Origin: a virus
Direction: 5' to 3' (one strand)
Virus genome (UHGV): UHGV-0369712
Length of the DNA stretch: 37,622 nucleotides
Notes under the pieces: generated by a model
What the model was told of the DNA's origin: nothing
Seen by the model: the letters and a program-made list of their open reading frames with translations, nothing else
The model's database searches: none
Part shown: in pieces, positions 24,531 to 37,622 of the stretch
Position numbering within the stretch: position 1 is the stretch's first letter
Layout: the number at the start of each line of letters is the position of its first letter
Translations under genes and position numbers: made by a program

Positions 24531-26681
24531 ATGAGTACCACAACACGAAAATTTAAAACCGTTATCACCGATACGGGTGCAAAAAAATTAGCTCAGGCAG
24601 CCGCGCCAGATGGTAAGCCCGTCCGCCTGACTCATATGGCCGTGGGCGACGGTGGCGGCACGTTGCCCACACCAGACAGTAAGCAGACCCGTCTGGTGCA
24701 TGAGGTGTGGCGACACACTGTTAATCGCGTCATCCTGGACGCAACACATCAGAACCGCATTATTGCGGAGCTGGTTATTCCTCCTGAAACGGGCGGATTC
24801 TGGATCCGGGAAATTGGTGTGTTTGATGAGCACGGCGATTTAATCGCGGTGGGCAATACTGCCGAAAGTTACAAGCCAACTGTTGCCGAAGGGTCCGGAC
24901 GTGCACAAACATTTCGCACCATTCTGACCGTATCCAGCACAGCCACCGTAGCGCTTACCGTGGATAGCACCATGGTGATGGCCACAGTGGATTACGTGGA
25001 TGACAAACTGAAAGAGCATGAACAGTCACGACGTCACCCGGACGCCTCGCTGACCGCAAAAGGCTTTGTTCAACTCAGTAGCGCCACTAACAGCGTGTCT
25101 GAAACGCAGGCTGCAACGCCGAAAGCAGTAAAGGCAGCGTATGACCTTGCTAACGGTAAATATACTGCGCAGGATGCCAGCACGACGCGAAAAGGCCTTG
25201 TCCAGCTCAGTAGCGCCACCAACAGCACGTCTGAAACGCAGGCTGCAACGCCGAAAGCAGTAAAGGCCGCGTATGACCTTGCTAACGCAAAATATACCGC
25301 TCAGGACGCCACGACGGCACAAAAAGGGATAGTCCAGCTCAGTAGTGCCACCAACAGCACGTCTGAAACACTGGCCGCGACATCGAAAGCGGTTAAGGCG
25401 GTAATGGATGAAACGAACAAGAAAGCGCCCTTAAACAGTCCTGCGCTGACCGGAACGCCAACAACACCAACTGCGCGACAGGGAACGAATAATACCCAAA
25501 TCGCAAACACGGCTTTCGTTATGGCTGCGATTGCCGCCCTTGTAGATTCGTCACCTGATGCACTGAACACGCTGAACGAGCTGGCGGCGGCGTTGGGCAA
25601 CGACCCGAATTTTGCGACCACCATGACTAACGCGCTTGCGGGTAAGCAACCGAAAGATGCCACCCTGACGGCGCTGGCCGGGCTTGCTACTGCGGCAGAC
25701 AGGTTTCCGTATTTTACGGGGAATGATGTCGCCAGCCTGGCAACTCTGACAAAAGTCGGGCGGGATATTCTTGCGAAATCGACCGTTGCCGCCGTTATCG
25801 AATACCTCGGTTTACAGGAAACGGTAAACAGGGCTGGTAACGCCGTGCAAAAAAATGGCGATACCTTGTCCGGTGGGCTTACTTTTGAAAATGACTCAAT
25901 CCTTGCCTGGATTCGAAATACTGACTGGGCGAAGATTGGATTTAAAAATGATGCTGATGGTGACACTGATTCATACATGTGGTTTGAAACAGGCGACAAC
26001 GGCAATGAATATTTCAAATGGAGAAGCCGCCAGAGCACCACAACAAAAGACCTGATGACGCTGAAATGGGATGCACTAAATATTCTGGTAAATGCCGTCA
26101 TTAATGGCAGTCTTGGAGTTGGTACGACGAATGCGTTAGGTGGTAGCTCTATTGTTCTTGGTGATAATGACACCGGATTCAAACAGAATGGTGATGGTAT
26201 TCTGGATGTTTACGCTAATAGTCAGCGAGTATTCCGCTTTCAGAATGGAGTTGCTATTGCTTTTAAAAACATTCAGGCAGGTGATAGTAAAAAGTTCTCG
26301 CTATCCAGCTCCAACACCTCCACAAAGAATGCAACGTTTAATTTATGGGGTGCTTCAACCCGTCCAGTAGTTGCAGAGTTAGGCGATGAGGCAGGATGGC
26401 ATTTCTATAGCCAGCGAAATACAGATAACTCGGTAATATTTTCTGTTAACGGTCAGATACAGCCCAGCAACTGGGGGAATTTTGATTCACGCTATGTAAA
26501 AGATGTTCGCCTGGGTACGCGTGTTGTTCAATTGATGGCGCGTGGTGGTCGTTATGAAAAAGCCGGACACGCAATTACCGGATTAAGAATCATTGGTGAA
26601 GTAGATGGCGATGATGAAGCCATCTTCAGACCAATACAAAAATACATCAATGGCACATGGTATAACGTCGCACAGGTATAA
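24531..26681 (+). CDS. H: tail fibre protein (P2 gpH-like); C-terminal part lies inside the invertible segment
   Basis: 716 aa, very similar throughout to P2 H as I recall it (N-terminus KFKTVITDTGAKKLAQAAAP..., C-terminus RPIQKYINGTWYNVAQV); contains tandem 44-aa repeats and a gix-like site. Confidence 0.9.
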   Translation: MSTTTRKFKTVITDTGAKKLAQAAAPDGKPVRLTHMAVGDGGGTLPTPDSKQTRLVHEVWRHTVNRVILDATHQNRIIAELVIPPETGGFWIREIGVFDEHGDLIAVGNTAESYKPTVAEGSGRAQTFRTILTVSSTATVALTVDSTMVMATVDYVDDKLKEHEQSRRHPDASLTAKGFVQLSSATNSVSETQAATPKAVKAAYDLANGKYTAQDASTTRKGLVQLSSATNSTSETQAATPKAVKAAYDLANAKYTAQDATTAQKGIVQLSSATNSTSETLAATSKAVKAVMDETNKKAPLNSPALTGTPTTPTARQGTNNTQIANTAFVMAAIAALVDSSPDALNTLNELAAALGNDPNFATTMTNALAGKQPKDATLTALAGLATAADRFPYFTGNDVASLATLTKVGRDILAKSTVAAVIEYLGLQETVNRAGNAVQKNGDTLSGGLTFENDSILAWIRNTDWAKIGFKNDADGDTDSYMWFETGDNGNEYFKWRSRQSTTTKDLMTLKWDALNILVNAVINGSLGVGTTNALGGSSIVLGDNDTGFKQNGDGILDVYANSQRVFRFQNGVAIAFKNIQAGDSKKFSLSSSNTSTKNATFNLWGASTRPVVAELGDEAGWHFYSQRNTDNSVIFSVNGQIQPSNWGNFDSRYVKDVRLGTRVVQLMARGGRYEKAGHAITGLRIIGEVDGDDEAIFRPIQKYINGTWYNVAQV
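25056..25420 (+). repeat. about 2.75 tandem copies of a 132-bp (44-aa) in-frame repeat within H
   Basis: KG[FLI]VQLSSATNS[VT]SET[QL]AAT[PS]KAVKA... repeated with a 132-bp period (units near 25062, 25194, 25326). Confidence 0.8.
25794..25819. other. gix/hix-like recombination site 1 (left inverted repeat of the invertible tail-fibre segment), inside H
   Basis: TTATCGAATACCTCGGTTTACAGGAA; 22/26 match to the reverse complement of site 2; close to the Mu gix consensus TTATCCAAAACCTCGGTTTACAGGAA as I recall it. Confidence 0.7.
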
Positions 26682-34902: not shown

Positions 34903-36021
34903 AGGGAACAGATGACCGACACCACCATGCAATTGCTCAGTCAGGGCACAGACCCCGTGAAAATGCCGGATTTTGATATTCTCGCGGAGGGTAAAACGCT
35001 GTCCGGCGTGGCAGAGCGCCTGATGAGCCTGTCGCTGACCGACAACCGGGGATTTGAGGCGGACCAGCTCACCATCACGCTGGATGATGCCGATGGCCAG
35101 TTGCAGCTACCGCCACGGGGCGCGCGTCTGACGGTTCTCATTGGCTGGAAAGGGGAACCGCTGACAGAAAAAGGCACTTACATTGTTGATGAAATCGCTC
35201 ACGAAGGACCGCCGGACAGGCTGACTGTTTCAGCCAGAAGCGCAGATTTTCGGGATGAATTTAACGTTAAACGTGAGGTGTCCTGGCATGATGTGACCGT
35301 TGAGCGTGTGGTATCCGCCATCGCTCATCGGTACGGTCTGAAACCACAAATCAGCGAAATGCTGATGGATATCGAAATCGACCACGCCGACCAGACCGAA
35401 GAAAGCGACATGTCCTTTCTTACGCGCATGGCGGAAATGCTGGGCGCAATCACCACGGTAAAAAGCGGTAATCTGTTATTCATTATGCCAGGCGGTGGCG
35501 TGAACGCACAGGGCCAGCCGTTGCCATCGTTCGCCATCACGCGCAGCAGTGGCGATCGCCATCAGTTCCGCATTGCTGACCGCGAAGCGTATACGGGGGT
35601 ACGCGCTTACTGGCTTGATCTTAATTACGGGAAAAAGAAAAAAGTCAGCGTGAAACGCCGCAAACCACCAAAACCCAAAAAGGAGAAAAGCAGCAGCCGT
35701 GAAGGTGATTATATGGAAGGTGCGGAAGGCAATGTGTTTGTGTTACGCAAGACTTATCAGAACGAGCAGGCAGCAAGACGCGCAGCGGCGGCAAAGTGGC
35801 AGCAGCTACAACGCGGAGCCGCATCATTCTCCATCACACTGGCACGTGGACGCGCAGAACTCTACCCCGAAATGCATGGCACGGTAACAGGATTTAAAAG
35901 CGAGATTGATAATCAGGACTGGATTATTGCAAAAGCCGAGCACACCATTGATAACAGTGGCTTTACCACACAGCTTGAGCTTGAGGCAAAAATCCCGGAA
36001 TGGATAGCGGAAACAGAGTGA
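34903..36021 (+). CDS. D: tail protein D (P2 gpD-like)
   Basis: 372 aa from MTDTTMQLLSQGTDP; LSLTDNRGFEADQL, SARSADFR, WHD resemble P2 D; lysine-rich central linker; GGGAGGG RBS before 34903. Confidence 0.85.
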   Translation, partial: REQMTDTTMQLLSQGTDPVKMPDFDILAEGKTLSGVAERLMSLSLTDNRGFEADQLTITLDDADGQLQLPPRGARLTVLIGWKGEPLTEKGTYIVDEIAHEGPPDRLTVSARSADFRDEFNVKREVSWHDVTVERVVSAIAHRYGLKPQISEMLMDIEIDHADQTEESDMSFLTRMAEMLGAITTVKSGNLLFIMPGGGVNAQGQPLPSFAITRSSGDRHQFRIADREAYTGVRAYWLDLNYGKKKKVSVKRRKPPKPKKEKSSSREGDYMEGAEGNVFVLRKTYQNEQAARRAAAAKWQQLQRGAASFSITLARGRAELYPEMHGTVTGFKSEIDNQDWIIAKAEHTIDNSGFTTQLELEAKIPEWIAETE

Positions 36022-36063
36022 GGAACTTAGAATAGCGACAGCACCACGTTAAGGGAGGTCGCT

Positions 36064-36324
36064 ATGTTCCGTTGTCCGCTTTGTGGCGCATCTGCCCGTA
36101 TCCGCACCAGTCGTCCGGAAAATGATTCAAACACCGTGCGGCAAAAGTATTACCAGTGTAACAATCTGGAATGCGGCGTATGCTTCTCAACACTGGAAGC
36201 TTTCCATAAATTCACATCAAAACACGCCTCCGGCGTTCACTCTTCAGAAGGTATCCCGTGGCATGAGCTGCCAGCTTCACACAGGGGAAACAATCAGATG
36301 AGTTTGCCTTTATCTCAGAATTAA
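36064..36324 (+). CDS. ogr: late transcription activator, Ogr/Delta zinc-finger family
   Basis: 86 aa; MFRCPLCGASARIRTSR...YYQCNNLECG gives the C-x2-C...C-x4-C zinc finger characteristic of P2 Ogr / 186 B. Confidence 0.85.
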   Translation: MFRCPLCGASARIRTSRPENDSNTVRQKYYQCNNLECGVCFSTLEAFHKFTSKHASGVHSSEGIPWHELPASHRGNNQMSLPLSQN

Positions 36325-36345
36325 CAAGCAGAATTGCCGGAGTAA

Positions 36346-36460
36346 CAAAAAAGCGATAGATTACGCGCGGGTGCCTTTCGGCTGATGGTCGGAGGGAATA
36401 CCCGAAGGCCAGATGTGGAAAGGCCCCGGAAAACATTTCTGTTTAACCGAGGCCCTAACC
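36346..36460 (+). repeat. copy A of a ~105-115-nt conserved element (leader of the hok-like gene)
   Basis: About 75% identical to 37360-37463 (shared blocks AAAAAAG.ATAGA, CCTTT.GG.GGATGGT.GGAGG, GTTTAACC.AGGCCCTA). Confidence 0.55.
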
Positions 36461-36597
36461 GTCTAACCTTAGCAAGTGATAGGTTAGCGCCTCTCCAACA
36501 AAGGAGCAAGCGCTATGTCGCAAAAATCGCTTACGGCCATCACGTTCTGCGTGACGGTAATCCTCATCATCTGGATGCTGCACGGTTCGCTGTGTGA
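36385..36597 (+). CDS. mok-like overlapping reading frame (candidate translational-coupling ORF for the hok-like toxin)
   Basis: 70-aa ORF starting in the leader and overlapping the toxin ORF out of frame, as in hok/mok loci; coding status uncertain. Confidence 0.3.
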   Translation: MVGGNTRRPDVERPRKTFLFNRGPNRLTLASDRLAPLQQRSKRYVAKIAYGHHVLRDGNPHHLDAARFAV

Positions 36598-36655
36598 AAT
36601 ACGGATGAGCTTCTGGGGAGCGGAGTTTGCGGCGTTCTTACAGTGTAAGCAGTAA
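36515..36655 (+). CDS. Hok/Gef-family type I toxin (46 aa membrane peptide)
   Basis: MSQKSLTAITFCVTVILIIWMLHGSLCEIRMSFWGAEFAAFLQCKQ: N-terminal TM helix then ...SLCEIR...(E)FAAF..., matching the conserved Hok core; AAGGAG RBS 5 nt upstream; under the ORF-track size cutoff. Confidence 0.55.
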   Translation: MSQKSLTAITFCVTVILIIWMLHGSLCEIRMSFWGAEFAAFLQCKQ

Positions 36656-36743
36656 GGAAACCGCGACGGGGAGGCAACTCCCCGTCAATCGGTTGCTAGG
36701 GTAAGGCCGATAAGGCACCCTATCTCATAGGCATGAATAACAA

Positions 36744-36776
36744 CCCCGCAGCGTAAAAACTGCGGGGTTTCTTTTT
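36744..36776 (+). terminator. rho-independent terminator (bidirectional-capable) after the hok-like locus
   Basis: CCCCGCAGCGTAAAAACTGCGGGG hairpin followed by TTTCTTTTT. Confidence 0.65.
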
Positions 36777-36844
36777 GGAACTCTCACTAGCTAGTGAGGC
36801 GTTAACTGCACATAATGCTCGCACAACAAATCAGTTAAAAGAGA

Positions 36845-37126
36845 TTACTCAGCATTCTCCTGCTTCCATTGCCGGATCATTTCATCGGTAACATCACTTT
36901 CATAACATACCACGTCATACCCTCCAGTACGGCTATATGCACTGCGTCCACCACATCTACTACCATTCCTTGCATGATTATACGGACACGCACAATTGCC
37001 TGGATAAGATTCAATGGATTCTTTAATTATTTCTTTCTTGATCTGAGCATCTGACTTTCCTGTTGCTGCATACCCACTAAAAGATACCAAACAAAGGCAG
37101 ATTGCCATTAATAAACCACATCGCAT
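36845..37126 (-). CDS. small secreted cysteine-containing protein, function unknown
   Basis: Preferred start MRCGLLMAICLCLVSFSGYAA (signal-peptide-like), about 93 aa; the longer track ORF (to 37240) has a non-signal N-terminus; AT-rich. Confidence 0.45.
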   Translation of the reverse strand: MRCGLLMAICLCLVSFSGYAATGKSDAQIKKEIIKESIESYPGNCACPYNHARNGSRCGGRSAYSRTGGYDVVCYESDVTDEMIRQWKQENAE

Positions 37127-37359
37127 ACCGATACACTCTATTACTAACCAATCATAGCCCACATCATAAAATCGAGATGAGGAGTACAACACCTTTAACA
37201 AGAAGGTGCCATCACGATAATATGCCGTGCAATTCATCAAAAAAAAGATCTATATCAAAGAGATAGAGTTATTATCAGTGCTGCAGACATCAGCATTCGA
37301 GGCAGCAGAAAGACAGTAAATCTAACGAATTTGTCTTTTTCTCAGGATGTTGTCAGATT

Positions 37360-37463
37360 AAAAAAGATAGAGTAGCGCAGACACCTTTTGGTGGATGGTA
37401 GGAGGAAAAATGAAGTTGAGTGGGAAGATCCCAGAAAAAACTTTGGTTTAACCAAGGCCCTAG
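37360..37463 (+). repeat. copy B of the ~105-nt conserved element, without an obvious downstream hok-like ORF in the window
   Basis: Aligns with 36346-36460 block by block; the downstream 160 nt encode no Hok-like peptide in any plus frame. Confidence 0.5.
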
Positions 37464-37606
37464 TTCAATATGCGAAATGCAGATGAGTTGCAAGAGAGTT
37501 TTGCTTCACCCTTAGAGTTTAAACAGACGTGTACTATTATTATTTCTGCATATCGCCACACCATCGCCACTTTACCGCCATTTAACAAAATACAAATACA
37601 AAAAAA

Positions 37607-37622
37607 CCACCCGAAGGTGGTT
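37607..37622 (-). terminator. hairpin plus T-run at the window edge (terminator for a minus-strand gene lying to the right)
   Basis: Minus strand reads AACCACCTTCGGGTGGTTTTTTT; truncated by the window end. Confidence 0.4.

Follow-up and report, generated by a model that had tools for sequence, protein, structure and literature searches.

Why should a prophage that carries a Hok/Gef-like toxin locus at one of its ends also carry, about 1 kb further downstream and in the same orientation, a second copy of the leader of this locus? The question is raised by the virus genome UHGV-0369712, whose complete stretch of 37,622 nucleotides (nt) is called the window here; the toxin locus (copy A) follows the gene ogr near the right end of the window, and the second leader (copy B) lies between copy A and this end. 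An earlier note, made from the sequence alone, had offered several options for copy B, namely a degenerate locus, a decoy or antisense-related RNA gene, or a conserved element with a function of its own. According to our analysis copy A is most likely an intact hok/sok locus and copy B the fossil of another member of its subfamily that has diverged further, a reading to which we assign a probability of roughly 0.82. Homology, deletion architecture, the lack of a conserved open reading frame (ORF) or fold in copy B, the prophage borders and the way in which the RNA of copy A is predicted to fold were computed for this explanation; which promoters are used, where Sok begins and ends and what role copy A plays are what we infer.

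That the leader occurs twice was borne out by the alignment of positions 36347-36457 with 37360-37462, in which 80 of 111 columns (72%) are identical and several gaps occur; the Smith-Waterman score of 60 compares with 18.2 +/- 2.3 and a maximum of 29 in 300 shuffles. In addition, copy A was aligned with five relatives that are 75-96% identical and originate from P2-type prophages, Stx2 phages, a lambdoid tail region and an island, and the profile of these six loci matches copy B with its positions 23-132, which represent promoter and leader (E = 5e-9). At the next base of copy B, nhmmer resumes the match with profile positions 259-331, which represent the C-terminal half of hok, and positions 133-258 are skipped. 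In the O157-type variant this second block (GGTTCACTATGCGAAATACGGAGGAGCT) is identical to copy A (36584-36611) at 24 of 28 nt, a score reached by 0 of 500 shuffles, and it still encodes GSLCEIR. Judged from these alignments, copy B is a hok/sok locus that lacks about 126 nt of its interior owing to a deletion. The missing stretch corresponds to positions 36458-36583 of copy A and comprises the Sok promoter and 5' tail as well as the Shine-Dalgarno sequence and first 23 codons of hok. The earlier statement that copy B is followed by no recognisable toxin ORF was wrong as far as remnants are concerned, since positions 37463-37526 are homologous to the C-terminal half of hok.

Beyond this deletion, copy B shows several other signs of decay. 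A -35-like hexamer (TTGTCA, 37350-37355) and a -10-like hexamer (TAGAGT, 37368-37373) are separated by only 12 nt (11 nt in the O157 type) versus 17 nt in the six intact loci, and a 5-nt gap in the promoter spacer is common to all copy B variants. What remains of the hok frame is shifted, the intact toxin ORF and its ribosome-binding site are gone, and no ORF is shared among the variants. The fold of the copy B leader is not significant (z = -0.56 for the window, +0.28 for the O157 variant, versus -2.43 for copy A), and the G+C content is 40% in copy B versus 52.5% in copy A. Between variants, the first part of copy B differs by 13.9% and copy B altogether by 14-18%, versus 1-3% in the adjoining gene for a protein of 93 amino acids (aa); with its small indels, copy B diverges more than any other part of the segment. 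The first option of the earlier note, a degenerate locus, is thus supported by the deletion, the frameshifts and the lack of a conserved ORF or significant fold, whereas a leader with its own function is hard to reconcile with the fastest divergence in the segment.

The same lesion was found wherever we looked at this prophage type. Profile positions 133-258 are absent in 5 of 5 E. coli variants and in 23 of 23 IMG/VR contigs recovered by a pattern scan with the copy B leader, the identical deletion being located next to the leuZ terminator in all of them, and each P2-type prophage examined that is integrated in leuZ carries the hok fossil with this deletion. An intact copy A lies about 1030 nt upstream of copy B in 21 of the 23 contigs. 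The second block recurs in three more E. coli loci, and 11 of the 23 contigs show it at E <= 0.1. No intact locus of the copy B type was found among these contigs, all of which have the deleted form, and no hok was found near homologues of the 93-aa gene in seven loci of Aeromonas, Kosakonia and Pseudomonas. An Rfam search of positions 35900-37622 at E <= 1 returned nothing on copy B, and RefSeq has no annotation under it.

Both copies belong to the same integrated element. The window is a P88-like prophage (Xuanwuvirus, P2-type) integrated in the tRNA gene leuZ of E. coli, and it is 100% identical to E. coli UTAK-5 (NZ_CP157152.1), where tRNA-Leu(taa) leuZ, cysT, glyW and pgsA are situated directly right of the window and yecA is found on the left side, past the integrase. 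A direct repeat with a perfect match of 124/124 nt brackets the prophage, and in a search of the window the tRNA 3' fragment occurred a single time, with no third att copy between A and B, as would be expected for tandem or remnant elements. Because the att repeat brackets the region and a third copy is lacking, copies A and B both lie inside one integrated element, at whose right end tail gene D, ogr and hok copy A follow each other. Extension of the sequence to the right, which had been proposed in search of another toxin behind copy B, leads to the leuZ terminator and tRNA-Leu instead.

Copy A itself is, by its sequence, an intact hok/sok-type type I toxin-antitoxin (TA) module, i.e. a known system. 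The 46-aa peptide passes the Pfam HOK_GEF model (PF01848; 30.1 bits, cut-off 22), matches PHROG 251 with 82.8 bits and is annotated in RefSeq as Hok/Gef family protein (WP_000078920.1). It is not a member of the HokA equivalog NF007290 of NCBIfam (35.8 bits, cut-off 89), it is also under the cut-off of the NCBIfam Hok-family model, and PADLOC gave no match for Hok. The identification of a Hok/Sok locus in the earlier note was right, including a Hok ORF behind ogr, whose product is recognised as Ogr/Delta, and a strong terminator, which we find as a terminator-like hairpin with a T-run.

The predicted RNA of copy A is consistent with this identification. Fold-back closure between the 5' and 3' ends is a defining feature of hok mRNAs. 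For the 412-nt transcript 36369-36780, a minimum free energy (MFE) of -183.6 kcal/mol was calculated (z = -8.8), and in both the MFE and the centroid structure a tac-like element at 36369-36384 is predicted to pair with an fbi-like element at 36705-36720, a closure retained in the consensus fold of the six loci. Rfam model RF01794 ('sok', which spans the hok leader) matches positions 36369-36525 over its full length (E = 1.2e-8), and transcription of hok would start near G36369. On the minus strand, a Sok RNA may extend from about 36473 to 36415; the fold of 36480-36410 (-25.7 kcal/mol, z = -3.4) has a 5' tail followed by a long hairpin and a U-rich end, an architecture resembling that of Sok of plasmid R1, and AGGTTA, the complement of the putative Sok -10 hexamer, is invariant across the six loci. 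A scan for consensus promoters called neither the hok promoter, which is below its threshold, nor the sok promoter, and the two were assigned by alignment and analogy only. The search for a Sok-like antisense promoter suggested previously thus yielded a readable TTGCTC-17-TAACCT arrangement with a well-folded candidate RNA behind it, but not a promoter call.

The overlapping mok-like frame described in the earlier note does exist in the window as a 70-aa ORF, but it is not conserved among relatives. The corresponding frame of P88 does not open before +105 and contains no start codon, and a usable start is also missing from four further loci of the subfamily. The ORF has no match in Pfam, PHROG or NCBIfam and is probably fortuitous; a conserved mok frame was rejected because it is closed or startless in P88 and these four loci.

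Several observations weigh against an intact copy A next to a fossil copy B. Taken alone, the second block of the window's own copy B is weak (19/25 nt, a score reached by 32 of 500 shuffles). It begins, however, exactly at the junction at 37463, and we accept it as a hok remnant because it is contiguous with the leader block and orthologous to the clearer block of the O157-type variants. Copy B has also been kept with the same deletion through 14-18% divergence, so that a secondary use, e.g. as part of an attP arm, keeps a small probability. For copy A, the RF01794 score of 45.9 bits is below the gathering score of 59, which we ascribe to its divergent leader lineage. Finally, a conserved mok frame is part of the classical R1 mechanism and is absent here, so that this mechanism does not account for the way in which Sok would block hok translation in this subfamily.

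The retention of copy B near the att core would be accounted for if it had been co-opted as DNA, as a part of the ogr-side attP arm that is bound and bent by Int, IHF or Cox. About 70 nt separate the end of copy B from the 124-nt att repeat, the AT-rich ATCGCCAC repeats between the two are conserved in five variants, and the arrangement is fixed in all examples. However, the conserved repeats are located outside copy B, and the divergence of copy B, with its small indels, is unlike that of a constrained array of protein-binding sites; we therefore regard this use as unlikely. Slightly less likely still is that the fossil has been kept for some other purpose of this kind, be it as a spacer within the attP arm, as an element that bends this arm or as a barrier between the tRNA operon and the 93-aa gene. 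A functional RNA gene, i.e. an orphan antitoxin of the Sok type or a decoy which modulates copy A, either by titrating Sok or by imitating the hok leader, could be suspected since copy B is related to the leader that holds the Sok target, is retained in every variant examined and, in the window variant, shows a small minus-strand hairpin followed by a T6 run. The other variants lack this hairpin, the deletion took precisely the region of the Sok promoter and 5' tail, the hok-type promoter has a 12-nt spacer, neither strand folds significantly (z = -0.56 and +0.28 for the plus strand, -0.74 for the minus strand), Rfam gives no match, and divergence is highest here. As the parts needed for Sok function or recognition are deleted and drift is fastest in this stretch, we consider such a role quite improbable, and the decoy or antisense gene proposed earlier is not supported.

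It could further be argued that copy B is an older, decayed element at leuZ that predates the prophage and represents host-side or remnant DNA, since the stretch 36779-37622 has no match among deposited phages in either BLAST mode and homology to phages of the P88 type ends at about 36778. Yet this break is accounted for by the different att/int module of P88, the att repeat brackets the whole region with no third copy between A and B, and the segment is present in the 23 IMG/VR viral contigs, with hok A spaced as in the window in 21 of these, and is always joined to P2-type prophage DNA at leuZ. Moreover, a strain in which IS1 replaces most of the segment keeps only the att-proximal 211 nt. 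An origin before the prophage is thus very improbable. That the similarity of A and B is a chance resemblance of two stretches of mixed AT and GC content, as 72% identity with several gaps might suggest, is refuted by the shuffles, by the E-value of the profile match and by the collinear second block that matches the hok ORF, and has practically no probability left. An intact locus accompanied by the fossil of a related one remains the explanation that we prefer; the features on which it is based are compiled in Table 1.

Table 1. Features of the hok/sok region, its neighbours and the prophage borders in the window
Feature	Position	Strand	Remarks
Left att repeat copy	from 24 nt left of window to 99		leuZ terminator, 44-nt spacer, 3' half of tRNA-Leu(taa)
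Integrase gene	206-1207	-
ogr, late-gene activator, Ogr/Delta zinc finger	36064-36324	+	Pfam PF04606, 52.4 bits; RefSeq ogr/Delta
Copy A, intact Hok/Gef type I toxin locus downstream of ogr	36334-36778	+
Candidate hok promoter TTGCCG-17-TAGATT	36334-36362	+	read from sequence; both hexamers conserved in six hok loci
Full-length hok mRNA of copy A (predicted)	36369-36778	+	predicted fold; terminator 36742-36777
70-aa mok-like ORF overlapping hok	36385-36597	+	from open reading frame list
Candidate Sok unit	36415-36509	-	-35 TTGCTC 36509-36504, 17-nt spacer, -10 TAACCT 36486-36481
hok Shine-Dalgarno sequence AAGGAG	36501-36506	+
hok coding sequence, 46 aa	36515-36655	+	MSQKSLTAITFCVTVILIIWMLHGSLCEIRMSFWGAEFAAFLQCKQ
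93-aa Cys-rich secreted-type protein	36845-37126	-	PHROG 27544, 199 bits, function unknown
Copy B, decayed hok/sok locus	37346-37526	+
Copy B part 1, promoter remnant and first ~90 nt of leader	37346-37462	+
Copy B part 2, remnant of C-terminal half of hok ORF	37463-37526	+	joined directly to part 1
AT-rich stretch between copy B and att repeat	37528-37597		38% G+C; repeated ATCGCCAC motifs
Right att repeat copy, first 25 nt (leuZ terminator)	37598-37622		remainder and tRNA-Leu just past window

Between the two hok loci lies the gene for the 93-aa protein, in a segment of 40% G+C. The protein has a signal-peptide-like N-terminus and a Cys-rich core (YPGNCACPYN...RCGGRSAYSRTGGYDVVCY), has no match in Pfam or NCBIfam, and PADLOC returned nothing for it. 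The gene of the window differs from the O157 variant by 6 synonymous codon changes (of about 65 synonymous sites) and 2 non-synonymous ones, and the protein is under purifying selection among the E. coli variants. Relatives in Aeromonas, Kosakonia and Pseudomonas share 50-64% identity and have no hok nearby; the gene is an independent moron between two hok loci. On the other side of copy B, the AT-rich stretch next to the att repeat contains closely spaced ATCGCCAC / ACCGCCAT repeats which are conserved in five variants and could be arm-type integrase binding sites of attP; the stretch would then possibly be an attP arm.

The deposited Xuanwuvirus phages (P88, Chuche and others) match the window with 96% identity up to about position 36778, just past the hok terminator, where the homology ends because these phages have other att/int modules. 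For the remainder, 36779-37622, host DNA had been suspected; this was ruled out by the 124-nt att repeat, which lies outside it, and by the IMG/VR contigs that contain it. The att duplication is unusually long, as it reaches beyond the tRNA 3' half and takes in 44 nt of downstream spacer and the whole terminator of the leuZ operon, and the phage therefore brings a replacement tRNA end together with a terminator. Beside int, three small genes on the minus strand (1213-2660) encode a DUF2511 protein (115 aa), a 216-aa protein without significant family and a 134-aa helix-turn-helix (HTH) protein, probably the immunity repressor; PADLOC found only weak HTH matches and no defence system among them. 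At 25058-25321, a 132-nt unit occurs in two tandem copies with 87% identity, presumably within a tail-fibre or tail gene.

In some E. coli lineages the leuZ prophage is heavily eroded. In O157:H7 SS52 (locus L004, 2172-5031), the insertion sequences (IS) IS30 and IS3 replace the region from D over ogr to hok A. Among the loci L003 (733-4171) and L005 (2070-3945), Iso00270 contains an IS3 with a group II intron, and WP3-S18 contains IS1 and a tet(B) region, with only the last 211 nt remaining. Both O157:H7 and Iso00270 retain the 93-aa gene and the hok fossil despite the erosion by IS elements.

If copy A works as its architecture suggests, a weak constitutive promoter would give rise to a stable hok mRNA whose 5' and 3' ends pair with each other and thereby prevent translation. 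The short, unstable Sok RNA, transcribed from the minus strand, would bind to the leader after the mRNA has been processed and bring about destruction of this mRNA; once Sok synthesis stops, the 46-aa Hok peptide would be made and damage the inner membrane. Candidate triggers are the loss of the prophage, an infecting phage that shuts off transcription, and induction of the prophage itself, and a role of copy A in prophage maintenance or defence, as considered in the earlier note, is plausible. Copy B, on this reading, is unable to produce either toxin or antitoxin, and its sequence is drifting.

The ogr-att end of P2-type phages is a cargo site. The leuZ-type att/int module may have brought an old hok locus that has died since, and the late-gene module, which ends at the hok A terminator, may have brought the living one. 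Since homologues of the 93-aa gene occur elsewhere without hok nearby, the arrangement indicates repeated acquisition followed by decay rather than a two-part system. What we describe is a known system accompanied by an unannotated pseudogene, with nothing new in kind, and its significance beyond annotation is small. Nevertheless, more than 600 E. coli genomes contain this recognisable pseudogene of hok/sok without a RefSeq annotation, and the repeated uptake of hok modules at the ogr-att end of leuZ-type phages adds a little to what is known about the turnover of TA cargo in P2-type phages.

With respect to known systems, copy A holds nothing beyond what has been described, as its peptide cluster has already been catalogued and tested. 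The hok A lineage is present in 1750 of 5426 complete E. coli genomes, in up to 9 places per genome, and a Hok catalogue of 2026 found hok enriched in prophages (bioRxiv 10.1101/2025.08.07.668861). Its supplement lists, in Hok cluster 72, the peptide 72_1621, which is the copy A peptide with V15A; upon arabinose induction 42 of 45 Hok peptides were toxic, and 72_1621 was tested and is not among the three non-toxic ids (bioRxiv 10.1101/2025.08.07.668861). The same holds for peptide 72_1589 of this cluster, the Stx-phage form, which is very close to the form found in the locus L008 described below. In the catalogue, 5.1% and 2.6% of the unique hok coding sequences are too short or interrupted (bioRxiv 10.1101/2025.08.07.668861). 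It comprises coding sequences only, degenerate ones having been discarded, and describes neither copy B nor the arrangement of two loci.

The PHROG family matching copy A bears the name of hokW-sokW, a working type I TA system of the Stx2 prophage Sp5 that aids phage release after induction (PMC8621323). HokW, however, has 51 aa, starts with MKQQKAM and has an R1-like leader (GCGGGTGCTTGAGGC... / GCGGGTGCTTGAGGCTATCTGCC, from the published primers), whereas copy A has MSQKSL... and GGGTGCCTTTCGGCTGATGG; toxin and leader lineages differ, and an identity of copy A with hokW-sokW was rejected on the basis of these primer sequences. A different hok locus, which encodes 46 aa, accounts for the 84.5% match of copy A to Stx2 phages. 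Stx2 phages have this 46-aa type, 82-84% identical to copy A, as a second hok locus besides the published hokW-sokW, and in an O157:H7 Stx2-type prophage (L008, 1670-1810; 82%) it lies just downstream of the Ail/Lom gene lom. Homology between the Stx2-phage locus and copy A spans 373 bp, exactly from the promoter to the fbi element (36348-36720 in the window), and these limits imply that the hok module moves as a cassette.

Copy A shares with hok/sok of plasmid R1 and the Hok/Gef family the small single-helix toxin with LCE(I/F)R and AAF motifs, an mRNA of about 400 nt with 5'-3' pairing (predicted for copy A), a cis-antisense RNA of about 60 nt with 5' tail, long hairpin and a promoter of its own that overlaps the hok upstream region (a candidate in copy A), and a terminator downstream. 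In contrast to R1, where the toxin has 52 aa and the locus resides on a plasmid, the toxin of copy A has 46 aa, its leader belongs to a different lineage without a conserved mok, and it is located at the ogr-att end of a P2-type prophage. For copy B, the closest counterparts are the inactivated hok loci of E. coli K-12 (hokA-E), which likewise are disabled loci left as fossils. Pedersen and Gerdes reportedly described in 1999 that these chromosomal loci were disabled by rearrangement, truncation or point mutation. A truncated hokD is present in the Qin prophage (PMC6379469). Compared with the K-12 fossils, the lesion of copy B is a clean internal deletion of about 126 nt which fused the leader to the C-terminal half of hok, and, unlike them, copy B lies only 1 kb from an intact paralogue within the same prophage.

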